DNA of 64,000 bases from an uncultured bacterium (lineage in GTDB: Bacteria > Babelota > Babeliae > Babelales > Vermiphilaceae). Both the position numbers and the translations under genes were made by a program. The notes under the pieces are model-generated. The model searched no databases, was not told the origin of the DNA, and worked only from the letters and a program-made list of their open reading frames with translations. Location: positions 480,001 to 544,000 of the forward strand of contig OY968764.1 in assembly GCA_963695335.1 (NCBI GenBank). The letters run 5' to 3'. This document shows, piece by piece, positions 2,740-61,810 of this stretch. Position 1 is the stretch's first letter; each line of letters starts with the position of its first letter.

Positions 2740-2804
2740 GCGCTCATCCTGAGCTTGTCGAAGGATTAAAGCGCTTAATTCTTCAACAAGTTCAGAATGA
2801 GCGC
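2740..2804. repeat. REP-like inverted repeat pair
   Basis: GCGCTCATCCTGAGCTTGTCGAAGGA paired with TTCTTCAACAAGTTCAGAATGAGCGC. Confidence 0.8.
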
Positions 2805-2840
2805 AAGAAATATATCAGACAAGCTTGATAATATGTTTAT

Positions 2841-3719
2841 TTAAAATCTGTTCGCCATATGTTTTGTTTTACTATTTTGTGCAAGTTGAGTGCGCGGAGC
2901 CTGCAACGCTAACACTTTTTCTTTTTGTTCCACGAGATTTGTTTCCATAGCAATAATGGTTGGTTCAAGCGTGGCAAGTTTAGGCAACCAGTATAAACGT
3001 ATTTTTGCAAGACGTTTTTCTGCAGCGGTAAATTTGTTACGCGTTATATAAAAGTTACAAATATTACATTCACTTGCAGCAAGATGTTCGTAGCATTTGG
3101 TTTGTATGTGAGCAACTTCATCTCTATATTGTTTAAAGTGATCTTGTTTTAAGAAAACTTCAGTAAGTCCCAACGTTTCTTCTGTTTTTGTTTGATCGCG
3201 ATCGATTGGAAGTATGCATGCAAATGAACTGAGAGTGGAACGGTAGAGTGCATATTCTTGTTTTGCGCTACCAGGGTACAGTGAACAATATTGTGTGTAC
3301 ACGAGTGATGCTTTGTTTTGCTGACCATCTCCGTATAAAACATCAGCAAGTTCTAGAAGGTGCTCAGAGAGTAGTGTAATATCAGTGCATGTTTTGAGCA
3401 GTTGCTCAAGATATTTTATGGTAACTTGTGTGTTTCCTTTTTCTTTTTGTTCATTTTTTGCTTGAACAAGTTCTTCATATTCAAAATCTATGTATGTGCG
3501 GTTGCGTTTTTTCACGCCCTTGGGCGTGTCCTCCGAAGCCTTGGCGAAGGAGGATTGAGTGGAAGCTGATTTTTTTTTAATTGGTTTTTTTAAAGATGGT
3601 TCTTGACCAATTTTTACATCAAATTGCTGTTTATGCATTGAAGAAGCACCATTGATGATGGCGGAGTTAATAAGAACGGAAAGTGCTGATAGAATAATAT
3701 ACTTTCTTGTTTTTATCAT
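2841..3719 (-). CDS. bamD: Outer membrane protein assembly factor BamD-like TPR protein
   Basis: YPGS..QEYALY, DRDQTKT and HLAASE..I..FY TPR pattern typical of BamD. Confidence 0.8.
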   Translation of the reverse strand: MIKTRKYIILSALSVLINSAIINGASSMHKQQFDVKIGQEPSLKKPIKKKSASTQSSFAKASEDTPKGVKKRNRTYIDFEYEELVQAKNEQKEKGNTQVTIKYLEQLLKTCTDITLLSEHLLELADVLYGDGQQNKASLVYTQYCSLYPGSAKQEYALYRSTLSSFACILPIDRDQTKTEETLGLTEVFLKQDHFKQYRDEVAHIQTKCYEHLAASECNICNFYITRNKFTAAEKRLAKIRLYWLPKLATLEPTIIAMETNLVEQKEKVLALQAPRTQLAQNSKTKHMANRF

Positions 3720-3804
3720 GGGATTATGCCTATCATAAAATGATATTTTTGATACACGGTATTATTAAGAACTTATCTAAAACTTAAGAATTTGATTATT
3801 TTAT

Positions 3805-3958
3805 CCGTTCGCACTGAGCTTGTCGAAGTGAGCGAACATAATAGAATTTATGAATTCTTACAAATAATGTTCGTATGTTTCGAGCCGTCCTTCGCCGAGG
3901 CTTCGGAGGCCAGGCGGGCGTTTACTCCTGAGCTTGCCGAAGGGTCAACACGAACGGG
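3805..3958. repeat. Composite, nested REP-like palindromic elements
   Basis: CCGTTCGCACTGAGCTTGTCGAAGTGAGCGAAC is identical to 7101-7133; the second arm has a CCTTCGCCGAGGCTTCGGAGG unit and a CCTGAGCTTGCCGAAGG unit inserted. Confidence 0.8.
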
Positions 3959-4056
3959 AAGATATAATAAATTGTAAAAAGTTGATTGAAATTTTCAGAT
4001 AAACTCTAAATATGAGTATACTGGTATCATCACAAAAGAAAAGAAAGATACAAATC

Positions 4057-5766
4057 ATGAAAAAAAATAGCGGCGAATTATTAGTTCAATTAGGTGTGAT
4101 CAACGCACAACAGTTAGCCGAATGTCAGCAAGAAGCTGAAAAAACAGGAGCAACAGTTGAAGCGTGCGTTATTGAAAAAAAATATGCAACCGCTGAAAGT
4201 TTAGCGCAAGCGTATGCAAAGTATTCTTCTTTACAATATATAGATACTGTTACAGAAAAAATGGCAGATCTTGATCTTTTAGCAAAAGTTCCGCTTAAAT
4301 TTTTACGCGATAATGAAATTATGCCCATCATGATGGATGGGAAAATGTATATTTTGACAGCTAACCCTTTTAACTTTCAGCCGCTTGATGAATTGAATAT
4401 GCTGCTTGGTGGTAATGTGCAGTATGCCGTTGCACCATTAGCAGTGATCACCAACAGCATTAATCGTTATTATCCTCTTGAGGGCACCGAACGGATGATG
4501 AAGGAGCTTGAAGAGGAAGAAGAAGCTCCAAAAGAAGTTGCGTTTGAAGAGATAGAAGAAAAAGATATTCTTGGCATGGCAACAGAAGCGCCAATTATTA
4601 AGTTGGTGAATAATATTTTTTTTCAGGCAGTTAAACGTAACGCTTCTGATATTCATATTGAGCCGTTCGAAAAAGAGATTCGTGTACGTTACCGTATTGA
4701 TGGCGTGATGTACACGGTGATGAATCCTCCCAAGCGTATTCAGGGAGCGCTGAGTTCTCGTATAAAAATTATGGCGCATCTTGATATTGCAGAAAAACGT
4801 ATTCCGCAAGATGGTAGAATTGCGATTAAAGTTGCGGATAAAGCATATGACATTCGTGTTTCTGTCTTACCAGTGGCATTTGGTGAACGCATTGTGATGC
4901 GTTTATTAGATAAATCACGGACATTTACAGGGTTGCAAGAAATTGGATTTAGTGAACGAGATTTAAAAGTTATTGAAGCAAATATTAGTCGGCCCAACGG
5001 AATTATTTATATTACGGGTCCAACAGGTTCTGGTAAAACAAGTACGTTGTATTCCATTTTAACAAAATTGAATAGACCAGAAGTTAATATTGTGACGGTA
5101 GAAGATCCTATTGAATATCAAATGGCAGGAATTGGACAAGTTGGTGTGCGGGAAAAAGTTGGGCTTACCTTTGCAGCAGCATTACGATCAATTTTGCGTC
5201 AAGACCCTGACATTATCATGATTGGTGAAACGCGTGACCAAGAGACAGCGCAAATTGCAGTACAAGCAGCGCTTACTGGTCACTTGGTATTGAGTACGCT
5301 GCATACCAATAGCGCACCAGCATCTATTACGCGATTAATTGATATGGGCATTGAACCATTTTTAATTTCGTCATCTGTGGTGATGGTTGTTGCGCAGCGT
5401 TTGGTTCGTAAACTGTGTCCAAAATGTAAAAAGGCATATCATCCAAATGTAGAATTACTTGAAAAAATTGGTTTGTCTGCCAAAGAAGCAAAAGAGATTA
5501 AATTTTATGAACCGGTTGGTTGTGATGAATGTAATCAAACAGGGTTCCGTGGACGAATTGCTGTGTTTGAAATTATGGAAATGACGCAAGCAATTGCAAA
5601 ACTGACTATGGATCGTGCTGAAACTGGATTGATTAGAGAGCAAGCACTTAAAGATGGAATGATACCGTTGATCAAAGATGGCTTGCGTAGAATTAAAGAT
5701 GGTCTTACAACAATTGAAGAAGTTCTTGCAGTTGCAACTGCGGAACAAGAAGCGATAGACGCATAA
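4057..5766 (+). CDS. gspE: Type II secretion / type IV pilus assembly ATPase (GspE/PulE/PilB family)
   Basis: ASDIHIEP, GPTGSGKT Walker A, VEDPIEY, LRQDPD, GHLVLSTLHTN and tetra-Cys motif; ORF open from 4012. Confidence 0.92.
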   Translation: MKKNSGELLVQLGVINAQQLAECQQEAEKTGATVEACVIEKKYATAESLAQAYAKYSSLQYIDTVTEKMADLDLLAKVPLKFLRDNEIMPIMMDGKMYILTANPFNFQPLDELNMLLGGNVQYAVAPLAVITNSINRYYPLEGTERMMKELEEEEEAPKEVAFEEIEEKDILGMATEAPIIKLVNNIFFQAVKRNASDIHIEPFEKEIRVRYRIDGVMYTVMNPPKRIQGALSSRIKIMAHLDIAEKRIPQDGRIAIKVADKAYDIRVSVLPVAFGERIVMRLLDKSRTFTGLQEIGFSERDLKVIEANISRPNGIIYITGPTGSGKTSTLYSILTKLNRPEVNIVTVEDPIEYQMAGIGQVGVREKVGLTFAAALRSILRQDPDIIMIGETRDQETAQIAVQAALTGHLVLSTLHTNSAPASITRLIDMGIEPFLISSSVVMVVAQRLVRKLCPKCKKAYHPNVELLEKIGLSAKEAKEIKFYEPVGCDECNQTGFRGRIAVFEIMEMTQAIAKLTMDRAETGLIREQALKDGMIPLIKDGLRRIKDGLTTIEEVLAVATAEQEAIDA

Positions 5767-5793
5767 TGTTTTTTCGAGTAAAGGAATAATATA

Positions 5794-6243
5794 GTGGAAC
5801 ATACATATCTTGTTTGGGCATTGAGTTTTAGTTTGTTTTGTAATTCTTCAGAGCATCCTGCGAATAAACCACATACATCGCTGATGGAAGAATATCATAA
5901 TTCTTTTAAGCCACAGTTAGAAATTGAAAATAAAAAACATGAAGAGCGTAAATTTGGTAGAGGTTCTTCTGGGCCTGGTGAAGGTGAAATGGATTTAGAC
6001 ATGGATTTGGATTTACGACTTAAGATGAATACATATGAACGTGAAGCTCGATTGGCAAAATATAAGAAAGATGCAATTGCATCACTGGAGCAAGATAGAG
6101 ATAAATTGATAAAAAGTTTAGATGCAGAGCAGCGCCAACAGTTGCAGGACATAGAAGTAAAAACTAAAAAAATACAACACGTATGTAAGCAAGAAGAAAA
6201 AAATATACGATATCTAGTTATGCAACAGCGATCCAAGTTATAG
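5794..6243 (+). CDS. Hypothetical secreted protein
   Basis: Co-oriented ORF with a signal-peptide-like N-terminus and charged helical body. Confidence 0.6.
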   Translation: MEHTYLVWALSFSLFCNSSEHPANKPHTSLMEEYHNSFKPQLEIENKKHEERKFGRGSSGPGEGEMDLDMDLDLRLKMNTYEREARLAKYKKDAIASLEQDRDKLIKSLDAEQRQQLQDIEVKTKKIQHVCKQEEKNIRYLVMQQRSKL

Positions 6244-6252
6244 TAGGACATT

Positions 6253-6528
6253 ATGAATTATACATTAGTATTTGTGTGCACAGCTTTCTTTTCATATGCA
6301 ACTTCATCTGCAATGGATGCTAGTAAAGTAGTTGAAAATAATATTAAATACTTGAGAACTTTAAGAATTAAAACAGTGAATTCAATGCAAAAAATGACTG
6401 TAAAGAATATAAGCAATCAAGAATTTGTGGAAAAGATAGATTTTAAGATGCGATTGTTGGATGATATTGATCGAGACATTAAGCAGGCGGAAGAAAAGTT
6501 GAAAGAGCAAAGCAAATCTAAATTATAA
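6253..6528 (+). CDS. Small hypothetical secreted protein
   Basis: AGGA RBS; signal peptide ending SSA followed by Met. Confidence 0.6.
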   Translation: MNYTLVFVCTAFFSYATSSAMDASKVVENNIKYLRTLRIKTVNSMQKMTVKNISNQEFVEKIDFKMRLLDDIDRDIKQAEEKLKEQSKSKL

Positions 6529-7032
6529 ATGAAATATACTAAATCTGGTTTTACACTTATTGAAGCAATGGTAGTTCTCGCATTGTTTGCAGTTGTTGTA
6601 ATGCTTGGCATGTGGCAACTTTCATTTTTAGATAATACCATTGTTCATGCGCAAGTTGATAAACTTGCAACGGCGTGTTCGTATCTGCGGCAAAAAGCAA
6701 TTGCGAGTAACAGTGATCAGATTTTAGTGTGTGATGTAGAAAAAAATGAATATCGCGGTGATAATGTTAATGAAACGTTATCATCGCGTGTTTGTTTTGG
6801 TTTTTTGCCGAACGTTTTGGGTTCACCCGGTTCACCATCACGAGTGATTACTAAAGCAGTTACATTTCCTAATTCATCAATTAATTTTTACCCAACTGGG
6901 ACTCTTTCTTCTGGCACGGTATATCTTACTGATAAGAATAAAAAAAATATGTATGCCTTGAGTAATGCGGTGTCGCAGGTTTCTTATTTACGCCTTTACC
7001 GATATGATGGTAAGTGGAAGCTTTTAGATTGA
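6529..7032 (+). CDS. Prepilin-type N-terminal cleavage/methylation protein (minor pseudopilin, GspH/FimT-like)
   Basis: KSG/FTLIE motif followed by a hydrophobic helix; FYPTG near the C-terminus. Confidence 0.85.
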   Translation: MKYTKSGFTLIEAMVVLALFAVVVMLGMWQLSFLDNTIVHAQVDKLATACSYLRQKAIASNSDQILVCDVEKNEYRGDNVNETLSSRVCFGFLPNVLGSPGSPSRVITKAVTFPNSSINFYPTGTLSSGTVYLTDKNKKNMYALSNAVSQVSYLRLYRYDGKWKLLD

Positions 7033-7042
7033 TATTTTTTGA

Positions 7043-7133
7043 CGTTCGTATGGTTCGACAGGCTCACCACGAACGGATTAAGAAATTTATTATTATTCTC
7101 CCGTTCGCACTGAGCTTGTCGAAGTGAGCGAAC
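7043..7133. repeat. REP-like inverted repeat pair
   Basis: CGTTCGTATGGTTCGACAGGCTCACCACGAACGG and CCGTTCGCACTGAGCTTGTCGAAGTGAGCGAAC. Confidence 0.85.
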
Positions 7134-7148
7134 ATAACGTAATTCAGA

Positions 7149-14012: not shown

Positions 14013-14088
14013 GGGCCGCTAGCTCAGTCGGTAGAGCAACAGCCTTTTAAGCTGTGGGTCGTTGGTTCGAGTCCAACGCGGCTCACCA
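14013..14088 (+). tRNA. tRNA-Lys (anticodon UUU)
   Basis: Cloverleaf from GGGCCGC to GCGGCTCA-CCA; anticodon arm CAGC-CTTTTAA-GCTG; GTTCGA T-loop. Confidence 0.97.
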
Positions 14089-14118
14089 GTCTACGCCAAG
14101 GCTTCGTCTGGCTTCGCC
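14089..14118. repeat. Short palindromic element (CT(A/T)CGCCAAGGCTTCG family) directly after tRNA-Lys
   Basis: GTCTACGCCAAGGCTTCG; related to copies at 3528, 18325, 19977 and 61101. Confidence 0.7.
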
Positions 14119-14239
14119 AAAAAGGTGGAGTTAAGTTTGAGTCTGTCGAAAGATTTGGCACAGTCAATTAAAAAAGGCTGTGGTTTTTTATTTTTACCCA
14201 CTTATATCAGAATTCTAAGTCACCTTTCTTGAAATTTAT

Positions 14240-14317
14240 GTCCCTATCGTCTAGCCTGGTCTAGGACATCGCCCTTTCACGGCGAAAACAGGGGTTCAAA
14301 TCCCCTTGGGGATGCCA
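14240..14317 (+). tRNA. tRNA-Glu (anticodon UUC), integration target
   Basis: GTCCCTA/TGGGGAT acceptor stem plus G-CCA; anticodon arm TCGCC-CTTTCAC-GGCGA; GGTTCAAATCC T-arm. Confidence 0.96.
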
Positions 14318-15766
14318 TTGTATACAATCGAACGAATCTGCGATTAAATCGAATGGCGAAACAAGCTCCCAATGAACATTTTCACCACTTATCTTCAAGT
14401 TCGATAATACGGTTTTGATTAAAAGCCGTTTTTGCTGAACTTCTGAACTTATAAAAATATCATATGCTCTGTCTGCAAGCTTAAGCAGCATCTGTGCGGT
14501 AATATAGTAATTTGTCTCTGCTTCTTGAAGTTGCTCTAAACGAATGGCAATATCAGTTGCTTTGTCTTTGAGTGATGTGAAGAATTTGTCATAGTAGGCG
14601 TCAGTAATACTCCCTTTCAGTTTATCCATATAAAGATTATCCATCATCGTGGCAAGTGTGCTTTGTTCTTTTAATAACTTTTCATTTTCTTGTTTGTGGA
14701 ATTCAACTTTGTTTTTATGCACTTCAGTGAGAACATCCATCGTGTCTTGGAGAATGTTTTTTGGCATTTGTAGGCGTGCAAAGAGTTTGCTGATGCTTGC
14801 AGTAATTGTTTCTTCACGGAACCATGTTGCGCCATGTTTGCCTTTTGCTTGCGTGCAATGGTAATAAACATGGCCTTTTTGCCGTTCATGGGTTATTGCA
14901 AGACCGCAATCGCCGCAACGGATTAAACCGCGATATAAAATGTCTTCTTTGCCTTTGTAGCGTTGTAGGTTTTTTCCATTTCTTTTTCTAACTTCTTGTA
15001 CTTCCTGAAACAATGCTTGTGTAATGATGGGTGGATAATTATGAGGATATGATTTTCCATTCACGGTCATGATGCCGTAATAGAAGGTGTAATTGAACAT
15101 TTTATCAACATTGCTTGTGGACCATGCAAGGCCATAATCAGTGTTTATTTTTTTGCATAAGGTGGAAAAAGAAAATGCACCTGTTGCATACAATTCAAAT
15201 GCTTTGCGCACAACTTGTGAGCCAAATTCATCAACAATAATTGTTGTTTTGTCGCTACCTAATGAAATGTTTTTATACCCATAAGGCGCTTTTGCAGGCC
15301 ATTCACCTTTGCGTAACTTTTGTTCAATGGCACGTTTAACATTATCACTGATTGCATCGGAATAATATTTTGCTAACCCAAGGCTGATGCCAAATTGGAA
15401 CTTTTCAACAGCAGAAATATTACTGTTGATGATTTGCCCGTCGGAAATAAAATGTAATTCAAGTTGATCTCTGAGGGCTTTTTCATAAAGGGTGGAGATG
15501 CGTTTATCAAAGGTGTTGCGTGATAGTCTATCTACTTTATCGCAGCAGATAACAACTTTTTCTTTTTGATTGAGTGCATAATCAATAATTGCATCAAATT
15601 CAGAGCGGCTATTGGTATAAGCACTTTCATCAAAGCTGCAAGTGCGGAGTATACTAAAGCCTTTGTTGCGACAATATTGTTCAAGGCGACTTATCTGGGC
15701 AGGGAGTGAATTACCAGCTTCTTTTTGTTCTTCTGTGCTGACACGAGCTATCAGAATAGCTTTCAT
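14261..15766 (-). CDS. Large serine recombinase (resolvase, recombinase and zinc-ribbon domains)
   Basis: ARVSTEEQ catalytic Ser, DRLSR, APYGY, CGDCG...YYHC and coiled coil; last codons are the antisense of tRNA-Glu. Confidence 0.95.
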   Translation of the reverse strand: MKAILIARVSTEEQKEAGNSLPAQISRLEQYCRNKGFSILRTCSFDESAYTNSRSEFDAIIDYALNQKEKVVICCDKVDRLSRNTFDKRISTLYEKALRDQLELHFISDGQIINSNISAVEKFQFGISLGLAKYYSDAISDNVKRAIEQKLRKGEWPAKAPYGYKNISLGSDKTTIIVDEFGSQVVRKAFELYATGAFSFSTLCKKINTDYGLAWSTSNVDKMFNYTFYYGIMTVNGKSYPHNYPPIITQALFQEVQEVRKRNGKNLQRYKGKEDILYRGLIRCGDCGLAITHERQKGHVYYHCTQAKGKHGATWFREETITASISKLFARLQMPKNILQDTMDVLTEVHKNKVEFHKQENEKLLKEQSTLATMMDNLYMDKLKGSITDAYYDKFFTSLKDKATDIAIRLEQLQEAETNYYITAQMLLKLADRAYDIFISSEVQQKRLLIKTVLSNLKISGENVHWELVSPFDLIADSFDCIQWHPQGDLNPCFRRERAMS

Positions 15767-16008
15767 GGGATAAATCCTTTTGTTTATGGATATTTCGTAG
15801 ATTTGTCGATGATAGTGTAACAGAAGAAATGAGGATTGTTATTAGTATTATAATTGGAGCTTCAAGATGATAATAAATATAAACAACAAGATATGATGAA
15901 TATAACTTAATATATTTAATTATATTTTTATGTATTAAATTTACTTAATTACATTATTATGGCATTCTTTGTGTGCATTACAAAATACATAACAAAAAAG
16001 GTGCCCTC

Positions 16009-17196
16009 ATGAAAAATTCTCATCTAATTCTCACCCTATGTGCATTAAGCACATTGATATCTCACTCAATGCAACTTACTCTCAAAGCAAATCCTCACAA
16101 ACTTAAACAGATAAGATACATTACATCACAAAAGGAATCACAAACAACACCCACCAAGATAAAGAAACAAAAAAATAATCAATATAATAATTGTTGTATT
16201 ATTGAAGGAAAAGAACGAGTAAAAGACCTTGTGGTACAGACTTCAAATGCATTGCAATCACGCCTTAAGGAATTACAAACAACATTCACCAAGACAAAGA
16301 AACGAAACAGCAGTCAATGCAATAATTGTTGTATTGTTGAAAAAAAAGAGCAAATTAAAGATCTTGTGGTATATACTTCAAATTCATTGCAATCATGTTT
16401 TCCTACATATAACTCCAAATACGATTCCAAAGTTTTTGTTGAAGATTATGGTTGTCAAAGTTTACATATTGTATTCGGTATGACCCATGCTTGTTTTGCC
16501 GTTGCGACGCTTAACCCTATTGGCTTGATTCCAATTATTACGAATGCTGTAGCAATAAAATGTATTAAGTTAGATAGGGATCTTATTAATTCAGTAGAAC
16601 GACCTCAGTTAGCAACAGATTTGATATCTTATTTGAATGCGATTAATCGTGAGGGTTATCTTTCTATTCATAGGCTTTTTATCAGAAGAGATTGTATAGA
16701 AAATGAGATAAGAAATCATAAAAAAGTTAATACACAAACGCTTTCATCCCTTGATTTAAAAAACGCATTAAATAATTATAATGTAAAACTTATTGAGTTA
16801 GAAAAGTCAGAAGACATAATAAATAGTGAAATTCTTGAACCAATCTTACCTATTTTGAATAAGTATGAAAATGTAGATATTGAAAAATGTTTAACATATA
16901 CAGATACACTAAAGAGAACTGCGGCATTTAAAAGACGTTTACTTGTTGGTGGAAGTTTGGCTATTTATCTCTCCACTTTGGGTATCGTTGTGGATGGCAC
17001 TGACAATGTATTAATTGCATTCATAGCTACGTTATCTATGCTTGATTTAATAGGAACACCTTTAATAATGGATAATGATTTATCAGATAAGATGAATATT
17101 ATTTCGAATTGCCTAAAAATCTATAAAAATCATTTGGCAACAATACAAAACAATGCTTTTGTAAAAACATTAGAAAATAAAAAAAATATTGAGTAA
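16009..17196 (+). CDS. Cargo protein: signal peptide, internal Cys-containing repeat, two hydrophobic hairpins
   Basis: AAGGTG RBS; NNCCI.E.KE..KDLVV.TSN.LQS occurs twice; ORF open from 15973. Confidence 0.75.
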   Translation: MKNSHLILTLCALSTLISHSMQLTLKANPHKLKQIRYITSQKESQTTPTKIKKQKNNQYNNCCIIEGKERVKDLVVQTSNALQSRLKELQTTFTKTKKRNSSQCNNCCIVEKKEQIKDLVVYTSNSLQSCFPTYNSKYDSKVFVEDYGCQSLHIVFGMTHACFAVATLNPIGLIPIITNAVAIKCIKLDRDLINSVERPQLATDLISYLNAINREGYLSIHRLFIRRDCIENEIRNHKKVNTQTLSSLDLKNALNNYNVKLIELEKSEDIINSEILEPILPILNKYENVDIEKCLTYTDTLKRTAAFKRRLLVGGSLAIYLSTLGIVVDGTDNVLIAFIATLSMLDLIGTPLIMDNDLSDKMNIISNCLKIYKNHLATIQNNAFVKTLENKKNIE

Positions 17197-17222
17197 TGCC
17201 GAAAAATAATAGTGGTTAAACA

Positions 17223-17259
17223 ATTAAGGGTTATTGCAGATTATTGCATAGCCCTTAAT
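17223..17259. terminator. Hairpin between convergent cargo and rep genes
   Basis: ATTAAGGGTTA...TAGCCCTTAAT inverted repeat. Confidence 0.55.
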
Positions 17260-17276
17260 CATTGTTCAGTAACTTA

Positions 17277-18434
17277 TCAAATTTCTTTTGTGATAGGTTC
17301 AAATTTTTCTAAGCAATCCCTAATCACCTTAAATGAATTTGATGATATGGGTTGTTGAGTAATCGTAGTGTTTTTCATATCAGCAATTAAGCGGTACCAG
17401 CTACGTTTATTGTGTGCACCAAGCATAGTGCGTAGTTCACGAATGCTTATTTGATCCAATGCCAATTTCATTCCATAAAGCTGCAAAATACGGCGAGGGC
17501 TGAGGGTAGGATTATTAAAAATAAGAGCAACAAGAAGTTGTTTTGTGTTATTTGTTTTGAAATCCAACAACGGTGGGCGCATGCGTTCAATTTCATCAAG
17601 ATAATGCAGGAGTACTTTGCGTGCAATGTTTGTTTTGAAGAGTCCTTTAAAGGTCAGTTGAGCTTTAATATTCAGCATCTTTAAAATCTGTTGGATCTTG
17701 CGCCGATTATTCAAGCGTGCTTCCATGCGTAAAACTTCAAACATTTTTTTATTATGCAATTCATCGTAGAGGTGCAATTGAATTGCGTTATCTTTTTCTA
17801 ATGATCGTTTATCACTTTTTTTTGCATATTCAAGATCACGAATTTTATCATAAAAAACTAATTCATAAGAGTTACTATGCCATTTGTAGCTGTGGCCTTT
17901 ATTGCGGTAATCAGTTTGATTGATATCAAGAGAGAGTTTGATATTTGCTTGTTCAATTTTGCTGATGTAATGATACGGAATAGAACCATCAGTGAGTGGG
18001 ATATTTTTTGAAAAATGAATGCCGGAAACGGGTGCATTGATCAAATTTTCAATATCAGTTGCAACTCCCATGGTGTGTAATGTTGTGCATAATTTTTGTA
18101 CAAGATCAGGAAATTGTTTTTGTGTTAGTTCTTCAAAGTTGTTACCAAATAATAGTTTTGGCAATGATAGTTCAATTTTAAGCAACGTTTTTGGTGTTGA
18201 GAGTGGTGAGGGCCGTCTTAAAAGGGATAGACGAGGTTTATAATAACCTGTAGCTAATTCTTTTTTTGTCGGGTTTTGTTTGGAAGAAATGCCGCGCAAA
18301 GCATAGGTTTTATCGTTGATCTCGGTCTTCGAAGCTTTAGCGAAGTAGACCCATCGCGCAGAAGGCGTAAATAAATCAGGATTAGTAATTTCAAACAAGT
18401 CTTGCGTAAGGAGTAAAACGATCGTATCTATCAT
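17277..18434 (-). CDS. Rolling-circle replication initiator, phage gII/X (CRI)-like
   Basis: MIDTI start, IELSLPKLLFGNN, V..IHFSKN, LVFYDK (putative catalytic Tyr) and LRMEARL motifs. Confidence 0.7.
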   Translation of the reverse strand: MIDTIVLLLTQDLFEITNPDLFTPSARWVYFAKASKTEINDKTYALRGISSKQNPTKKELATGYYKPRLSLLRRPSPLSTPKTLLKIELSLPKLLFGNNFEELTQKQFPDLVQKLCTTLHTMGVATDIENLINAPVSGIHFSKNIPLTDGSIPYHYISKIEQANIKLSLDINQTDYRNKGHSYKWHSNSYELVFYDKIRDLEYAKKSDKRSLEKDNAIQLHLYDELHNKKMFEVLRMEARLNNRRKIQQILKMLNIKAQLTFKGLFKTNIARKVLLHYLDEIERMRPPLLDFKTNNTKQLLVALIFNNPTLSPRRILQLYGMKLALDQISIRELRTMLGAHNKRSWYRLIADMKNTTITQQPISSNSFKVIRDCLEKFEPITKEI

Positions 18435-18804
18435 TGCAATATCCCATGATGAAATCAATTATATTGCACGTAAGGATACGGGTAAATGCTTTGAAAAACA
18501 AGTCCCGCAGAGCGGTTCTTGATGAATTACTCATTGCGGGATATTTGATGTGGCAAGGCTTGCCCTTCATAGCTTTAGCGGAGTAGGGTTGGTGTTTTAT
18601 GGGCCTGTGGAAGCCGCAGCACCCAACTTCGCAAAAGCTTTGAGACTCAGCTTTTTTTGCTTTTGCCTTTTTTGGTGAACGTCTTTTATTTGCTGCACTT
18701 GTTTGCAGATTCACTTCTATAAGTAATGTGAATAAGTTTGCAACACGTGTTTTTTCTTCAACTGTTAAGACTCTAACAGATTTTATTGGTCGTAATCGAG
18801 CCAT
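18391..18804 (-). CDS. Small basic hypothetical protein upstream of rep
   Basis: GAGAG RBS; helical N-half (LTVEEKTRVANLFTLLIEVN); the C-half contains a palindromic repeat and may be degenerate. Confidence 0.55.
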   Translation of the reverse strand: MARLRPIKSVRVLTVEEKTRVANLFTLLIEVNLQTSAANKRRSPKKAKAKKAESQSFCEVGCCGFHRPIKHQPYSAKAMKGKPCHIKYPAMSNSSRTALRDLFFKAFTRILTCNIIDFIMGYCNDRYDRFTPYARLV

Positions 18805-19071
18805 ATAATACTCTCTATAATAAATAATGAAAATTATTTTGTTCGTAGTATGGCGTAAAATTACTGTGACAAGTTTTTTAGATTAATTGGGAACTGAGAC
18901 AGGAATTGTACGCCATAGTCATGATCTGCGTGAGATCACGTTCAATATCTATAATTGCGTACATGGTATTCCTTCCGTGGCCTTCGAAGCTTTATGCGTA
19001 GTAGGCAAAAAAATGATGCTATCATTACAACGATTGCTGCAATGATAGCATATAGTGCGAATAATGCAAAT

Positions 19072-19401
19072 TTATTTTCTGCTTGGTACAGGAATCTCAA
19101 GCGGGATGTATTGGCCGTGAAGTTCAACCATGATTTTTTTGGATCCAAGCCCTCTTAAGATTTTAAAGAAACTTTGCATACTAAAATCTGTTTTGCTTCC
19201 TGATCGCATTGCTTGCACAATAGTCGGAGATACTCCTGCCATTTTTGCAAGTTTTCTTACGGATATATTGTCTTTTGCCATAGCAGCAAGAATCAATTCA
19301 GACAAAAGAAGTTCTTTATATTCTTCATCAAATTTTTTACGTTCTTCTGGGCTTAATGATTCAATAAGTTCATCTACAGTTGATTTTACTTTTTTATTCA
19401 T
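19072..19401 (-). CDS. XRE-HTH antitoxin (HigA-like)
   Basis: ISVRKLAKMAGVSPTIVQAMRSG HTH; overlaps the stop of the upstream toxin. Confidence 0.8.
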   Translation of the reverse strand: MNKKVKSTVDELIESLSPEERKKFDEEYKELLLSELILAAMAKDNISVRKLAKMAGVSPTIVQAMRSGSKTDFSMQSFFKILRGLGSKKIMVELHGQYIPLEIPVPSRK

Positions 19402-19777
19402 AATATGTTCCTTCTTTAACTCTTTTAATATAGTTCTCTTTTGCTCTTAAAGCTTTTTCTTTTTCTTTTATAGGCATTTTTGCTGATTTTTTTTCATAGG
19501 CATTGGTTATAATAACTTTTGATCCATCAAAGAAAAAACAGAAAAATCTGTCTGGTGAAGATTTAAATACATATATTTGGTCTCCTTCATAACGAAATTT
19601 TTCTAGATTAAAAACTTTTCCTGTGTTTCCAAGTAATAAAAAAAGGCGTGCGAGTTTCTTTTGACGATCATCAGGTAAATTTTTGAAATGAGCTAAAGGT
19701 TCACTTTTTCCCTTATCATTAAAATACCATTCAATGATATATTCTTTACCTTCACATGCTACAATCTTTTTCTTCAT
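19394..19777 (-). CDS. RelE/ParE-superfamily (Gp49/HigB-like) toxin
   Basis: IEWY...GKSE, IYVFK...RFFCFF...IITNAYEKKS.K.P..E pattern; toxin-first gene order. Confidence 0.85.
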   Translation of the reverse strand: MKKKIVACEGKEYIIEWYFNDKGKSEPLAHFKNLPDDRQKKLARLFLLLGNTGKVFNLEKFRYEGDQIYVFKSSPDRFFCFFFDGSKVIITNAYEKKSAKMPIKEKEKALRAKENYIKRVKEGTYYE

Positions 19778-19824
19778 TAAGCACTCGATTTTTTTATGGG
19801 TATTACTTTTTATTCATTATTAAA

Positions 19825-19844
19825 TGTATCATAAAAATGATACA
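19825..19844. promoter_or_regulatory. Probable TA operator
   Basis: Perfect inverted repeat TGTATCAT-AAAA-ATGATACA about 50 bp upstream of the toxin start. Confidence 0.6.
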
Positions 19845-20032
19845 AGCACAAGGATGATTATAATTTTGCACCTTCGTTCATTGTATATTTAACTCCGCAA
19901 ATAGCGTCTGTATCATGCTTAATGAGTATTTTATAGGGGCTGTTTGGTTCAGGAGAGCATGGTGAAGGGGATGCCAGTCTTCGCTCTAGCGAGCTTCGTA
20001 TGGCAAGCCAATCTTCGCAAATGATTGATATT

Positions 20033-20280
20033 AAAAATTAAAAGAGCTGTTTTAACAACGGCTCTTTTTTTTTTGTTTTAAATCGATCTATTCGTTACTT
20101 TTTATGTTTTGACCTATAAAATTCTATTGTGAAATATTGTTAAATTATAAAAATATTTATAAAACCATTGTTTTCTACCCCCCCCCATCTGATATTGTTA
20201 TAATTGAAATAAATATTGTTAGTTTTTCAAAAAAGGAGAGTTTTCATGAAGAAGTTATGTTTATTGTCAGGAATGATGGT
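20033..20280 (+). repeat. Terminator-promoter-signal peptide cassette, copy 1 (C9 tract)
   Basis: Near-identical to 23222-23463 and, in its 3' part, to 42236-42393; has TGTTATAAT extended -10 and poly-C at 20178-20186. Confidence 0.85.
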
Positions 20281-20824
20281 TTTTGTTGTGGCAGGTGTTA
20301 ATGCGGCACAAAACTTGACAGATGAACAACGTCAAAAATTGGAACAAGTGCAATGGGGAAAAATTAGACAACAACACGAATTGGCACGTCCTGCAACCTA
20401 TAAGATGTTAGATCCATTAGTACAGCAAAGCAACTGGCCTGCTGTTTTTCATATTCTTGATCAAATGCAAGGGGTTATAAGTGTTAATGAGTATCGATAC
20501 CATGGGGATACACTGCTTACTTTCGCGGTAGGTACAAAAAATATTTCAGCAGCAAAAACATTACTTGAAAAATATAAAGCTAATCCTAATGTAACATCTT
20601 TATCATTTTCAGGTCTTGGATTGTCACCATTGATGCAGGCTTGTATAACGGGAGACCTTGCCATGGTTAAATTATTACTTAGCTATAAAGCTAATCCTTT
20701 TTTAATGAGATCAGGAGAGGGAATAACACCAGGAAGTACCGCGTTGTTCTATGCTAAATATTATAACTATCCTGAAATTGTAAAATTGTTGGAAAAATAT
20801 ACACGTCCTGCAAAAGATGCATAA
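20246..20824 (+). CDS. Secreted ankyrin-repeat protein
   Basis: MKKLCLLSGM signal peptide; GDTLLTFAV, SPLMQACITGDLAMVKLLL and TALFYA..Y.EIVKLL repeats. Confidence 0.88.
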   Translation: MKKLCLLSGMMVFVVAGVNAAQNLTDEQRQKLEQVQWGKIRQQHELARPATYKMLDPLVQQSNWPAVFHILDQMQGVISVNEYRYHGDTLLTFAVGTKNISAAKTLLEKYKANPNVTSLSFSGLGLSPLMQACITGDLAMVKLLLSYKANPFLMRSGEGITPGSTALFYAKYYNYPEIVKLLEKYTRPAKDA

Positions 20825-20825
20825 A

Positions 20826-21026
20826 TTATAAAAATAAATGAGATCCCTTCTCTTGTTGTAGTTTTAAATTCTTCTAAACAATCTTTAATAATTTTAAACG
20901 AATTAGATGGCATGGGTTGTTGGGGAATGCTAGCATCTTTTATGTCAGCAATTAAGCGATACCAGCTGCGTTTATTGTAAGCACCAAACATGGTACGTAA
21001 TTCTCAGATGCTTATTGTTCCAATGC
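20826..21026 (-). pseudogene. 3' remnant of a rep gene homologous to 17277..18434
   Basis: MFGAYNKRSWYRLIADIK...SNSFKIIKDCLEEF versus MLGAHNKRSWYRLIADMK...SNSFKVIRDCLEKF; frameshift and stop upstream. Confidence 0.85.
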
Positions 21027-21289
21027 TATTTATGTTTTGCTTCAAGTTTTAATTGTAATCCCATGGCATTAATAATTGTACGAAAATCATGCCAACGTAG
21101 ATTCTTTTTAGAAAGCATTTTATAGATGTTTTGGTTGTCTACATTTTGTGCGTTAAGAACATGCTTTAAGGCAAGACGAATAGTTTCTTGATTTTCATCC
21201 ATAAGAGTAGCATTAAGGCATGCAAGTGCTTCTTCAGGATCTTGGAGTGCTTTGAGTAAACTTTCTTCGTGATCGATTGTTCTTTTCAT
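21026..21289 (-). CDS. Addiction-module antidote (HI1420-like) with an apparently shortened HTH
   Basis: LQDPEEALACLNA...LAL..V..AQ...QNIYKMLSKK...IINAMGLQL pattern. Confidence 0.7.
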   Translation of the reverse strand: MKRTIDHEESLLKALQDPEEALACLNATLMDENQETIRLALKHVLNAQNVDNQNIYKMLSKKNLRWHDFRTIINAMGLQLKLEAKHK

Positions 21290-21711
21290 TTTTCTTGTGT
21301 ATTTAAAGCATTATATTTTTGAAGAGCTAACTTTTTAATTTCTGCAATTTCATCTTCAGTAAAACGTTCTTTGAGATATCTTTGGAAAGTTTTTCTGTTC
21401 AGAGTTTTTTTTGCTATGACCATTTCAATAGCAGTGAGTTCAACTTCTTCTAAAATACCTCGATCTTTTAAAAAATCATCAAAGTTAGAGCCAATATACT
21501 TATTTTTTGTCATTATATTTTGTATCTTTTGTGATTGGATAATAGTTGGAGATACTTTTGCTATTTTTGCGAGTTTTTTTACTGATACATTATCTTTGGC
21601 TATAGCAGCAAGAATTAACTCGGATAATGCGAATATTCTATATTCTTCATTAAATTTTTTGCATTCTTCTGGACTCAATGATTCGATGAATGTATCAAAT
21701 GTTGATTTCAT
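21286..21711 (-). CDS. Chimeric protein of three antitoxin N-terminal segments
   Basis: aa 1-59 match 19072..19401; aa 67-101 carry IGSNFDDFL...GILEEV; aa 105-136 match the N-terminus of 21708..22013. Confidence 0.7.
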   Translation of the reverse strand: MKSTFDTFIESLSPEECKKFNEEYRIFALSELILAAIAKDNVSVKKLAKIAKVSPTIIQSQKIQNIMTKNKYIGSNFDDFLKDRGILEEVELTAIEMVIAKKTLNRKTFQRYLKERFTEDEIAEIKKLALQKYNALNTQEK

Positions 21712-22013
21712 TTTTTGAAGATATCTTTTGGCTCTTTATCCATAAGAGCTAGAAAGTGAGCAAAGCTTGCAAGTGTTAAGTTTGCTTGGCCACGTTGTAT
21801 TTTGGAGGCTTGAGATGGGCTTGTGGATAAGCGACGAACAACTTCGTTAAAACCAACCTTATTTTTTTTCATATATTCTGCCATAGTATCAGAAAGTATT
21901 TTTTGAATTGATCTGAGAATATCAACTTCAAGTTGTGCTTTGCGCTCAATTTCAGCAATTTGTTCTTTAGTGAGTCTTTTCTCTACGATGTCATAAAAGC
22001 TTTTTGTTTTCAT
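21708..22013 (-). CDS. XRE-HTH antitoxin
   Basis: ATG 22013 just after the toxin stop; GFNEVVRRLSTSPSQASKIQRGQANLTL HTH. Confidence 0.8.
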   Translation of the reverse strand: MKTKSFYDIVEKRLTKEQIAEIERKAQLEVDILRSIQKILSDTMAEYMKKNKVGFNEVVRRLSTSPSQASKIQRGQANLTLASFAHFLALMDKEPKDIFKK

Positions 22014-22014
22014 A

Positions 22015-22338
22015 TTATTTTTCCTCTGATAAGCGTTTATATGCAGTTTTAATATCTTTTTCCTGTGACTTTTTATCACCAGCAGCAAGTAGAATAATTA
22101 ATTGATTTTCCTTAAAGCAATAATATAGTCGGTATCCAAATTGTCGTTCACGTAATTCAAAGAGTCCTTTACCTAATGCACGACTATGAGGAAGTTTTAA
22201 TTCATTGCCTAATTTTTCTAACATGCGTAATTCTTGGGAGATAGATTCAAATTGTTCAATGGTTAACTTATAGATCCATTTTTCAAGGGGGCTTTTTCCG
22301 CTTTCATTAACCCAATATTCTATATTCCATTTTTTCAA
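22015..22338 (-). CDS. RelE/HigB (Gp49-like) toxin
   Basis: GKSPLEKW, LPHSRALGKGLFELR, YRLYYCF and LLAAGDK.SQ..DI..A; TTG start with AGGAG RBS. Confidence 0.88.
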   Translation of the reverse strand: MKKWNIEYWVNESGKSPLEKWIYKLTIEQFESISQELRMLEKLGNELKLPHSRALGKGLFELRERQFGYRLYYCFKENQLIILLAAGDKKSQEKDIKTAYKRLSEEK

Positions 22339-22451
22339 AGCTTCACTCCTACAAATAATAGTACTACTATAAAAGATAGTATAATAAGCGATGTTATGTC
22401 AATGCTAAACTTAATAAGTTACTTTATATAATGGAGTTTGTTTGCTCATTC

Positions 22452-22541
22452 GTTAACCATATCTTAAATTCCGTAAAGAGCGTCTGCATCATGCTTAATG
22501 GGTACTTGAAGGGGGCTGTTTGGTTCAGGAGAACATGGTGA
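22452..22541 (-). repeat. Second copy of the element right end (att-proximal integrase-tail sequence)
   Basis: AGCGTCTG.ATCATGCTTAATG.GTA....GGGGCTGTTTGGTTCAGGAGA.CATGGTGAA shared with 19880-19966. Confidence 0.85.
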
Positions 22542-22629
22542 AAAGGGAAGGCTTGAGTTGCTGTTGTGAGAAATGGGGTATGTGGTATACTGATTAATAG
22601 AAATTAACTTTTTAAATTAGGGATAATTT

Positions 22630-27863: not shown

Positions 27864-30363
27864 ATGTTCAAATTGCGGTATCGGTATTTGATTTTTTTAC
27901 TTTTTTATCATTCCTTGCAAGCATTAACAACGCTTAATGTAACATTAGATTCAGACAATAATCCGGGTGGCAGGTGAGATTGGTGATTTGAGATATGCTT
28001 GAATACAATGAATCAAGGTCTTAACTCAATACCCGATGATTATGCGATTGTTTTTGACTTTCCAATGACGATTCAACTCAATGGAATCTTGCCGATTATT
28101 AACAATTCCTCAAATCCTGTGAATATCACCATTGGTAATACAGGCTCAACTCCTACCGTTACAATTGATGGTAATAGTGGTGCTTACAGTGGATTTTTTA
28201 TCCCAACGGGAAATGTGACGATTCAAAACATGATCTTTCAAAACCTGAGCGCACAAGGTGGTAATGGTGGAGACGGAATTTCAGGCGGTGGTGGTGGAAT
28301 GGGTGCTGGAGGGGCCATTTACGCACCTCAATTCTTTTTAAATGGCTCAAATCCTTCAATCACTTTGATGAATGTATTGATAAATGAATGTTCTGCTGTT
28401 GGTGGAAATGGAGGAAGTTATATAGGTCTTTCTTCCACTGGTAATGAAGGTGGCGGAGGTGGCGGAGGTTTTAGCGGAAATGGTGGTTCTATTACTACCA
28501 CGGGAAGCACTGGAGGGGGTGGCGGAGGTGGCTTTGGTGGAGATGGTGGAGATGTTACTCTTTCGACCGATGATTTGGGGGGCGGCGGAGGTGGTGGCGG
28601 TGGAATAGGATCCCGCGCTACCATAGGCACACTCACGAATCTGGGCAACGGAGGCTCGGATCAGAATATCGGTTTGGATGGAAATGGTTATGGTCTTTCA
28701 ATTACTGCTGGTTCAGGTGCCGGAGGGAATTCTGGAGGGAACATGGCAGGAGGAGGCGGTGGCGGCACCACGGGAGGTGGCGGAGGGGGAAGTAATGGAT
28801 CTGATGGGTTTCAACCGCAAGGTAGTTTAGCACCAGGAGGCAGTGCTGTACCTTCTGGAGGCAATGGAGGAGACGGCGGTGGAGGAGGCGGCGGTGGCGT
28901 TGTTGTAACATCGTTTACAAATGGAGTAGATGGACAAGCAGGTAGTGGTGGCTATGGCGGCGGCGGCGGTGGTGGGGCTGGTACGGGTGCTTATGATGCT
29001 TCTTATACAGTACAAGGTGGATCTGGTGGAGTTGGCGGAGGTGGCGGTGGCGGAGGAGTGAATCAATCCGGTACGACGCCTGCATGAGGTGGTAATTCTC
29101 TTGGTGGAGGTGGCGGCGCAGGTGGTGGACCATCTAATGGTATCACTGCTTGGGTGGAAATGATATAGGAAATCTTGGTGGAGGATCAGGAGGAATGGGC
29201 GCAAATAACTATGGAGCAGGTTTTGGTGGTGGAGGCGGTGGCGGAGGAAGTGGTCTGGGCGGAGCTATATTTGTGGATAGCGGTTTGAATTTCACCATAC
29301 AAGCATTCTCTGGAATTCCAACCACGTTCAATACACCAAATAATACAACACAAGCAGGAACTCATGGAACTGGTGGCCCTGGAGCTCAAGATGGTCTAGA
29401 TGGATCAGCACTTGGGAATAGTATTTTCCTGCGCTCTGGATCTTCTTTAACATTCATGGCGCAAGATGTTGATGATCTTTTAACACTTGGTGATCAAGTT
29501 GCGTTTATTGATGATACAAGTTTTGGTGGGCAAGGAACGAGTGTCTTTGTAGGAGGAAATGGAACTGTTATTTACAATGGAACAACAGATTATCCAGGAA
29601 CCATTACTATCAACAATGCGAATTTCAAAGTGAATGGGTTGATCGATGCAGCATCTATTTTTGTCTGTAGAAACATTGGTTTTAGTGCGCAAAGAGGTAC
29701 TCTCAGTGGGAGTGGAACATTAACTGGAAATGTTTTTGTAAATTCCGGAACAATCTCTCCAGATACAGGGCAAGCACTCACGCTTGGAAGTTTGACTCTC
29801 AATTCAGCAGATCCAATTAACAACACTCTTGGAAGCCTTGTGCATATTGAAATTGATGCAAACAGAGGCACATCTTTATTGATGTTACCGGGCCTGCATC
29901 ATTAGCGGGTACATTAGAAATTGAATTAGACCCAAATGCTCAGCCTGGAACGTATACTATTCTGAATTCATCTGGTATTACAGGAACCTTTGATACCGTT
30001 ACATTTACAGGAACAGTTCCTAATTATACGCTTTCTTATCTGCCAGTTGGAAATCCTACCTTTGTGCAATTTGATTTCTTAGGTTACCCAAACCCTAATC
30101 CTTTGCATAAAAAGAAGTTCCGCGAAACGCTTGCAGCGTATCATCAAGCATATCTGTTTGAAAAGGTTGTTGCAGCTATTGGAAAACATGAAAATAAAGA
30201 TGAAAAACGTTTACGTAAAAAAGAAGCAAAACGGTTGGAACATTATAAGCAGCTTCATCCTTATAGTCACTATGTAAAAAAGCATTTCAAATGGCTCAAG
30301 AAGTTTAAGCATAAAGAAGTTCCGCATATTGTTCACTTGATTAAAAAAGGTGAAGCGGCATAA
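27864..30363 (+). pseudogene. Degraded glycine-rich autotransporter-passenger/adhesin-like gene
   Basis: Signal peptide from ATG 27864; frameshifts near 27970-28000, 29150 and 29870; in-frame TGA at 29085; GGAIY/GGAIF motifs and beta-helix-like tail. Confidence 0.75.
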
Positions 30364-60679: not shown

Positions 60680-61642
60680 TTATTTGTTATATACGCACAG
60701 CAACTTGTGCTTAGAGATAGTGTTATTTGCCAGAGTTTCTTCATGCCAAGAATCGAGTTTTTGTAAAATAGTAGGTAGAAGAGCAACAAATTTTGTGCTT
60801 GAAAACTTAGTATGGGAGATAGGAAGGTCATTTATTTTAACTTTAGCCTGGGTAAGATGGCTATAGGTTGGAAAGACACGGCTAGAAAAAGGCATCAGTG
60901 TGTAATGATATTTATGATGTTTATGAGGGCATTCATACTTGGTACAGAGTCGTCTCAATTGTGGTGCTATAATTTGCACCAGATCAAAGCTTGAATAAAG
61001 TGAATAGACATGATTGAACATAGGTGTGCAAATCAAGTGCTTTGTTCTTTCTTGTACTGGACATGCAAGGAGTATGAGTGATTTAATAGTTGGGTGATGA
61101 GCTTGCTCTTCGGAGCCTTGGCGAAGTAGGGGTTTTATTTTTGCCATACTGAGTGCAACGTTGCCGCCGTGGCTGTGAGCGATGATTCTAATAATTGGTT
61201 TTTTCCCATATTTTTTTTCATAAGCTTCACTCAAACTTATGATCTCTTTATGTAACACTTCAGCAGCTTTTTCTCTTTCTTGCTGTTTTAATTTTCCCGA
61301 CCAACCAAAAACATAAAATTCTTCAAGAGGAAAATGCTCTGGATCATGGTTTGCAATAGTTTCAGCAATTTCACGGAAGTGATGCTTTTCAGGAAATGCA
61401 TTGATGTGAAGCATGCATGCCTGTTCACCAAAGATTTTGTGATATGAAGGGGTGTAAATGATGAGTGTACCGTGTACCCAGATGGTAATAGGAGGAGATT
61501 CATGAGTTTCTGTGATGTTATGTGCTGGAGGTATGTCAATGTGGAGTTTTTGTCGATCAACATGTCTGCGATGAATACATCCTGGTAAAGATATGAGTAA
61601 GAAAAGAAGTAACTGACATCGAATAGGATTGTGTTTTCCCAT
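60680..61642 (-). CDS. Alpha/beta hydrolase-fold protein, possible lipoprotein
   Basis: IWVHGT, FGWSG, AHSHGGNV nucleophile elbow and LLACPVQ; LPGC lipobox-like. Confidence 0.8.
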   Translation of the reverse strand: MGKHNPIRCQLLLFLLISLPGCIHRRHVDRQKLHIDIPPAHNITETHESPPITIWVHGTLIIYTPSYHKIFGEQACMLHINAFPEKHHFREIAETIANHDPEHFPLEEFYVFGWSGKLKQQEREKAAEVLHKEIISLSEAYEKKYGKKPIIRIIAHSHGGNVALSMAKIKPLLRQGSEEQAHHPTIKSLILLACPVQERTKHLICTPMFNHVYSLYSSFDLVQIIAPQLRRLCTKYECPHKHHKYHYTLMPFSSRVFPTYSHLTQAKVKINDLPISHTKFSSTKFVALLPTILQKLDSWHEETLANNTISKHKLLCVYNK

Positions 61643-61684
61643 TATATACCTTGTTATACCCTAAGTCATGAAAAAATACTTTTC

Positions 61685-61810
61685 GCGCTCGTCCTGAGCC
61701 TGTCGAAGGATATCTTTTAGTGCGCTTTAATCCTTTTGCCCCAATTTTCACTTCGTTTCAATCGGGGTCCCCATCAAGAGAATTCGAAGATGGGGTGAGC
61801 TGATGAGCGC
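61685..61810. repeat. Composite REP-like element
   Basis: GCGCTCGTCCTGAGCCTGTCGAAGGA arm; the partner arm carries the CCCCAATTT...CCCCATC...GAAGATGGGG insert also found in mutL. Confidence 0.85.

Follow-up and report, generated by a model that had tools for sequence, protein, structure and literature searches.

The window analyzed here, a 64,000-nt stretch of contig OY968764.1 from an uncultured bacterium of the Vermiphilaceae, carries a 5.66-kb mobile element (14318-19976) that adjoins the 3′ end of a tRNA-Glu gene and encodes a large serine recombinase, here called the integrase. Judging from its sequence, the attachment (att) core of the element is inside the integrase coding sequence, and the C-terminus of the enzyme differs between the integrated and circular states: a 32-residue tail is the native C-terminus, and insertion removes it from the gene. 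On a broader reading, offered tentatively and rated at somewhat less than an even chance, a wide clade of tRNA-targeting large serine integrases from Dependentiae and Candidate Phyla Radiation (CPR) bacteria would set the direction of recombination by rewriting its own gene; a tail seated on the directionality-factor site would make a one-way integrase, loss of the tail would make it excision-competent, and tails would be exchangeable between tandem neighbors. The features on which the argument turns are as follows (window coordinates).

14240..14317, + strand: tRNA-Glu(TTC), the integration target, intact after integration and the sole tRNA-Glu called in the genome
14308..14317, + strand: attL core, the final 10 nt of tRNA-Glu
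14261..15766, − strand: large serine recombinase, 501 aa when integrated, with Resolvase, Recombinase, and Zn-ribbon domains and a coiled coil
19878..19976, − strand: parked native C-terminal tail, 32 codons from W to stop, at attR
19967..19976, + strand: attR core
19977..20068, + strand: displaced host tRNA trailer, a hairpin followed by a terminator-like site at 20040-20068

The integrase has an N-terminal serine catalytic domain (PF00239, E 3e-21) and Recombinase and zinc-ribbon domains (PF07508 and PF13408, both above cut-off), the zinc ribbon having an inserted coiled coil. Its catalytic residues R8, S10, D79, R80, and R83 are invariant in 96 homologs, and close homologs, as modelled, match solved integrases. 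On searching both strands of the window, two and only two instances of the 10-bp core GGGGATGCCA were found, at 14308 and 19967. W484 of the integrase lies inside this core, and the open reading frame (ORF) overlaps the 3′ part of the tRNA. An earlier, sequence-only reading had stated that the integrated recombinase ends in WHP plus residues from the antisense of tRNA-Glu, and the last 15 codons of 14261-15766 are indeed antisense tRNA. It had also stated that joining the ends at the core gives an alternative open frame over 19878-19966; this was reproduced by script, with the stop at 19878-19880. After the common W484-H-P, 15 residues follow in the integrated form and 29 on the joined circle (501 aa versus 515 aa), with attP inside codons 484-486. 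The tail does not look like a separate gene product: at attR its frame starts three residues before W, no start codon occurs from the upstream stop to that W, and in circles of relatives it is fused to the integrase. The window tail had no match in NCBIfam or PHROGs.

The right boundary was placed with the help of a same-genus genome, G251, in which the 24 nt matching window positions 19967-19990 are the end of tRNA-Glu plus its trailer. The likeness extends through the terminator-like site, and sequence near-identical to 19977..20068 lies directly 3′ of tRNA-Glu in G251. Therefore, the DNA to the right of 19976 is taken to be the displaced host trailer. Five of 10 same-genus genomes (G248, G250, G253, G256, and G257) have, in the DNA fetched, a tRNA-Glu without an intact integrase or tail; G250 retains a short integrase fragment. 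Five sequencing runs had shares of 0.06 to 0.09, with no RNA data set listed among the carriers, and contigs from four of these low-share runs contained no joint linking the two ends of the element and one weak empty-site-like joint in a relative. There was no clear inverted symmetry in attP or attB (best, 11/28), and scans for promoters and terminators were at chance level (22 versus 27 expected and 4 versus 3.7, respectively). From the occupied and empty sites and the circular relatives, we infer that the integrase recombines attP with attB. Hairpins resembling REP sequences lie directly 3′ of the CCA in several tRNA genes (window 14089-14130, 19977-20020, and other tRNA ends) and differ between genomes of the genus.

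Natural integrase-tail fusions were sought at 13 loci. Four of these take up whole contigs and have terminal repeats (L132, 123 nt; L140, 123 nt; L141, 127 nt; L054, 75 nt), and each has no tRNA, an integrase of 529 to 540 aa that ends in the tail, and a homolog of the putative replication initiator (Rep) of the element. L140 and L141 are one element, so there are three distinct circular contigs with the fusion. At the linear loci L030, L046, L055, and L130, an integrase or integrase fragment continues in frame into a tail, which is what a tandem junction should give; tails can be swapped between neighbors.

The tail is also conserved as a protein. Ten copies (the window tail and nine others, from 19 loci tried) were placed by DNA identity alone. 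The tail frame is open in nine of the 10, compared to 0, 2, 0, 5, and 0 for the other five frames, and identity at the three codon positions is 0.82, 0.94, and 0.75, the third varying most and the second least. The ratio of nonsynonymous to synonymous divergence (pN/pS) is 0.37, against 0.58 to 2.31 in the other frames, and falls to 0.29 in codons 12-31, outside the typical att arm; these pooled ratios overstate independence because the ten copies are kin. A stop stands at codon 32 in eight of 10 copies, switching among TAA, TAG, and TGA. The window and L001 tails, the only pair from intact elements, gave a pS of 0.77 and a pN of 0.17 (p=1e-6), with DNA identity falling to background about 25 nt past the tail stop; the corresponding values for the integrase body are 0.60 and 0.07. 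By these codon patterns the tail is under purifying selection as protein, and the codon-level conservation across homologs on which the sequence-only reading had hung its proposal is present.

That reading had drawn its own suggestion of selection from a second tail copy in the window (22441-22542, 82% identity over 102 nt), which was said to encode the peptide with mostly conservative or silent changes. The second copy does code for the quoted peptide in the homologous frame; the description of the changes was overstated. Over codons 4-31 there are 4.5 synonymous and 8.5 nonsynonymous changes (pS 0.26, pN 0.13, Fisher p=0.20), and eight residues differ, including S>P and N>K. The copy is without the TGG core, and it has TGG where eight of the 10 compared copies have the stop, the frame reading on to 22424. 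It is a decayed relic and by itself weak evidence. The window pair alone was accordingly rejected as proof of selection.

Could the conserved stretch instead be a DNA or RNA element, such as an att arm or a promoter of the neighboring toxin-antitoxin (TA) operon, or a small gene of its own? Each window copy sits immediately upstream of a Gp49-like gene, and codons 1 to ~10, which overlap the expected att arm, are all that two classes of tail have in common (see below). Codon 9 is ATG, GTG, or CTG in most close copies. However, codon 9 is Arg in most of the distant tails, codons 12-31 are the best conserved, variation is highest at third codon positions and lowest at second positions (0.75 versus 0.94), the stop is held in place while its triplet switches, and natural in-frame fusions exist. 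This explanation appears largely refuted, and we consider it very improbable.

The survey of relatives, named ones of which are mostly Dependentiae/Babeliales and CPR bacteria, bears on how general the split is. Of 160 loci fetched, 120 had a readable junction; 103 of these run into an antisense tRNA end, four into the tail itself, and 13 into something else. The tRNA targets at the 103 loci are Asn, Glu, Asp, Arg, His, Gln, Met, and Leu. Upstream searches with only the 7 nt at the W codon of each integrase gave open frames of 28 to 45 codons for 18 of 42 matches on the same strand and three of 22 on the other; the best same-strand frames resemble the window tail. With a profile built from 23 tails, 751 kb upstream and 768 kb downstream were searched: there were 52 upstream tails on the same strand (duplicates not removed, and about 21 of the 52 being profile members), none on the other strand, and none downstream. 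For 19 distinct pairs of ends that were not chosen by the core, agreement is 0.84 to 1.00 at nt 3-6 from the W codon and 0.16 to 0.47 before W. This confinement places the crossover just inside the CCA end of the tRNA. The tail profile hit 240 proteins at E<=0.001 among 1.84 billion; among the 150 of these listed, the tail is within the last 50 residues in 144, and 23 have integrase sequence before the tail, in one case the N-terminus only. The same genome has a second intact element of this design at tRNA-Gln (C1:885553-894803); its integrase is 57% identical, its cargo is different, and it has no match to the window Rep. Searches of phage and plasmid collections gave best identities of only 31% and 30%, and two records opened there were unannotated; a viral contig collection yielded two poor loci, and residues 468-516 of P0025, a natural fusion protein, used as a query for further full-length fusions, recovered only P0025 itself, among two candidates. 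Across the loci read, the att-in-integrase split is a family rule.

The two ends of the enzyme behave differently in this survey. Among the 120 best homologs, 56 stop <=3 residues after W, 53 end in a varied tRNA-antisense motif, nine end otherwise, and two were unparsed. A tRNA-derived end selected as an alternative isoform is not borne out by these counts. Because such ends vary freely or stop at once, the event is better called loss of the tail. A conserved degron in the tRNA-derived end was also considered and rejected, the ends ranging from 1 to over 40 residues and following the tRNA. Tails themselves fall into two classes; those of the second class (L060, L063, L073, L077, L066, and others) share only the first 10 residues, the first helix, and are mostly in one supported clade of CPR elements (tree of 95 rows, quick mode). 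Free variation of the integrated ends and the existence of two tail classes would suit an explanation in which the tail is an ordinary stabilizing C-terminus with little functional effect, attP lies within the gene to save space, and either isoform carries out both integration and excision. Among SCCmec recombinases, those with C-terminal extensions likewise act on several site pairs (PMC12286644). Against it, there is purifying selection on a segment whose translation requires a circle or a tandem junction, and the tail persists in different lineages and at no fewer than eight tRNA targets. We regard this explanation as unlikely.

Structure models suggest where the tail might act. In the model of P0025, the tail forms helices at residues 484-491 and 501-511 (predicted local distance difference test [pLDDT], 81 to 86), and the C-terminal part of the natural fusion at L105 gave a predicted template modeling score of 0.83 with a pLDDT of 94 to 95 in the tail core. 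Solved integrases align to residues 1 to 200-210 of the L105 model (4kis_C: Z 10.7, root mean square deviation [rmsd] 8.7, 164 aligned; 9iua_C: Z 10.2, rmsd 3.2, 100 aligned), and the tail begins at 215. The integrated form should therefore keep the known integrase fold, and the tail is modelled as a two-helix add-on beyond it. The tail profile gave only chance-level matches to solved structures (best E, 0.044). When residues 1-483 of the window integrase were co-folded with the window tail from our own alignments, the score was 0.66, compared to 0.00 for the best of three controls; this mark is reached by 116 of 157 solved pairs and two of 215 mismatched pairs. Contact agreement between runs was at least 85%, and partner pLDDT was at least 71. 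Predicted contacts fall at residues 334-349 and 419-437 (the two ends of the coiled coil, as assigned from the helices of the P0025 model), 441-452, and 469-478, and these positions are more hydrophobic across homologs than the rest of 334-478 (0.57 versus 0.37, p=0.02). The tail is thus predicted to pack against DBD2 and the hydrophobic base of the coiled coil, at the hinge to which directionality factors bind. For verified directionality factors, the predicted location is the DBD2-coiled-coil junction, a site that C-terminal extensions could block (PMC12286644), and a directionality factor restrains the hinge at this junction (PMC11722253).

This docking model gives a physical basis to the idea of a switch, which the sequence-only reading had raised in general terms. 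The long form must be able to integrate, because the incoming circle encodes only the tail-bearing enzyme. On the reading that we favor, the tail would be a built-in clamp on the direction-control hinge, keeping the coiled coil in the integrative path and masking the factor-binding site. Integration would then delete the tail from the gene and expose that site, so that it would be the resident, tail-less enzyme that could be turned to excision, perhaps by the small helical protein that is conserved upstream of Rep. We judge the clamp to fall just short of evenly balanced against everything else. The same docking surface, hydrophobic in homologs, could also mean that the tail completes a hydrophobic core at the base of the coiled coil, so that the swap changes activity or stability with no change of direction, as in Mx8. 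The tail-less enzyme would then be unstable or weak and the element locked in, and excision would need a rare event or a tail-bearing enzyme from a circle or a tandem neighbor. Several observations would fit: the integrated form of the Mx8 enzyme is reported to be less active (PMC4701971), the same idea was raised for the Dehalococcoides integrase DsiB (PMC3146451), the linear-locus integrases L030, L046, and L055 read into the tail of a neighbor, and integrase-less relics are common in the genus. On the other hand, the tail-less form retains the entire fold of solved integrases, and the conserved small protein accompanies the element at 82 of 163 loci, as a directionality factor would. An activity or stability switch is plausible, though we lean against it.

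Several points weigh against a directional clamp. First, recombinases with such extensions (SCCmec) may have no directionality at all (PMC12286644). Second, one solved chain, 9y66_A, aligns as far as residue 233 of the L105 model. Third, split-gene halves tend to pass the docking test, and the alignments were our own, although no solved chain resembles the tail by sequence. Fourth, contact residues are not significantly more conserved than the rest of 334-478 (0.69 versus 0.65, p=0.18), and evolution is faster in the tail body than in the body of the integrase (pN of 0.17 versus 0.07). Fifth, the second helix is not universal, since tails of the second class have no more than the first 10 residues in common with the others. 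Finally, the integrases of the circular contigs are 49 to 50% identical to the window enzyme, and those contigs could be collapsed tandem arrays.

The remaining genes of the element and the neighboring tRNA are listed below.

14013-14088, + strand: tRNA-Lys, upstream of tRNA-Glu
15973..17196, + strand: cargo ORF, 407 aa, no family match, variable among relatives
17277..18458, − strand: probable rolling-circle Rep, Phage_CRI/G2P-like by language-model features only
18391..18804, − strand: ORF with a conserved N-terminal small helical protein (~35-50 residues, about 18650-18804)
19072..19777, − strand: TA-like pair, a Gp49-like toxin (19394-19777) and a helix-turn-helix partner (19072-19401)

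The Rep had no match in Pfam, NCBIfam, or PHROGs, and its feature score was 0.97 to clusters in which 25 to 31% of members carry Phage_CRI. A homolog is present at 102 of 163 loci, and the element probably replicates by rolling circle. In ORF 18391-18804, conservation is limited to the first ~35-50 residues; the N-terminal helix, often in a protein of 45 to 65 residues, is accompanied by a Rep homolog at 74 of its 82 loci, and residues 1-55 gave no usable Atlas match. On these co-occurrence counts, the small protein is a candidate directionality factor or Rep regulator. The cargo gene has a 129-nt internal duplication (83%) at 16132-16395. On the circle, a single strand (19878-17277, −) would carry the integrase, its tail, the TA pair, the small protein, and Rep; therefore, excision could also couple their transcription.

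The relic tail belongs to a decayed sister element next to the intact one.

20216..22552, no strand assigned: decayed sister element, no integrase and no core
20216-20824, + strand: ankyrin cargo
~20848-21027, − strand: Rep 3′ fragment
21026-22338, − strand: TA-like genes
22424-22552, − strand: relic tail without core

Other integrase-less units ending in the tail were found in G255 (three), in G251 (one), in G254 (two, with integrase fragments), and behind tRNA-Arg of the same genome (two). Such units are stacked behind the tRNA in G255 (L203), G251 (L189), G254 (L204 and L205), and the same genome (C1:204826-211600). Each stacked unit comprises cargo, TA-like genes, and a core-bearing tail; the core is followed by a hairpin trailer like that after the tRNA itself; in G255 the trailer is a 109-nt repeat at 87%. 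Elsewhere in the window there are a glycine-rich repeat region (28282-29261), a 42-nt palindromic repeat in four copies (24087, 30390, 39918, and 42954), and further REP-like families (2740-7144, 45938-46181, and 61098-61796).

These results bear on how excision is controlled in serine integrases with no known directionality factor; whether enzymes with C-terminal extensions have another solution has been asked (PMC12286644). The present enzymes offer a natural isoform pair set apart by a single 32-residue module that is predicted to sit at the control hinge, and the question therefore becomes a two-construct assay. They also extend large serine integrases to tRNA targets, of which none were known in 2014 (PMC4383910); a small serine recombinase at a tRNA end had already been reported (PMC3816273). 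The annotated copies are the truncated form, so mining for genome-editing tools would clone the wrong isoform.

A study of SprA is reportedly concerned, by its title, with a C-terminal element as directionality toggle. The literature searched, which lay outside most subscription journals, contained no account of the tail or of the tRNA-targeting clade that carries it; the main text of PMC10083194 does not mention "tRNA," and the accessible part of PMC12884075 has nothing on an att-in-gene tail design. The att-in-gene tail swap in serine integrases is itself already in print, for the rumA integrative and conjugative elements (PMC4701971) and, as a proposal, for DsiB (PMC3146451), and the present case is not the first. 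What is added here is the codon test, the circular fusions, and the predicted docking site at the direction-control hinge.

Among serine enzymes, the streptococcal rumA elements have att in their own integrase gene and a changed C-terminus, but they insert into a protein gene, which exchanges its 3′ end with that of the integrase gene, the elements are large and conjugative, and the accessible part of PMC4701971 describes no conserved folded tail. DsiB (PMC3146451) is closer: a serine integrase of ~540 aa, encoded on the reverse strand, whose gene overlaps attL at the 3′ terminus of a structural RNA gene and was proposed to become complete solely in the circular form or behind a tandem island. 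The DsiB islands differ in targeting tmRNA (ssrA) and in carrying a small second recombinase, DsiA, along with a module of six genes; tail conservation is not reported in the part of PMC3146451 available. Here the target is tRNA-Glu, no such module was seen, and the element ORFs scanned contain no second resolvase domain. Phage phiRSM of Ralstonia (PMC3816273) also has a serine recombinase in reverse orientation at a tRNA 3′ end, but this is a small resolvase-type enzyme with attP between genes.

The Mx8 and SSV1 integrases, which the sequence-only reading had cited as precedents, are tyrosine recombinases, whereas the window enzyme belongs to the serine family. In Mx8 IntP, attP is in the integrase gene and integration replaces the C-terminus, 112 residues being replaced by 13 (PMC4701971, PMC4383910). 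The suicidal integrases of SSV1 and pTN3 are split by their own integration, and the intact gene acts as its own directionality control (PMC8371274). There the catalytic part is cut off, whereas the window enzyme keeps all canonical domains and its break falls after the end of the fold common to solved integrases. The integrases of SPbeta, LI/A118, Bxb1, and phiC31 share the domain order and fold of the window enzyme and are controlled at the same coiled-coil/DBD2 junction (PMC12286644, PMC11722253). In those systems, however, a separate protein binds the junction and drives excision, whereas the window tail, predicted at that junction, is covalent and present in the form that must integrate.

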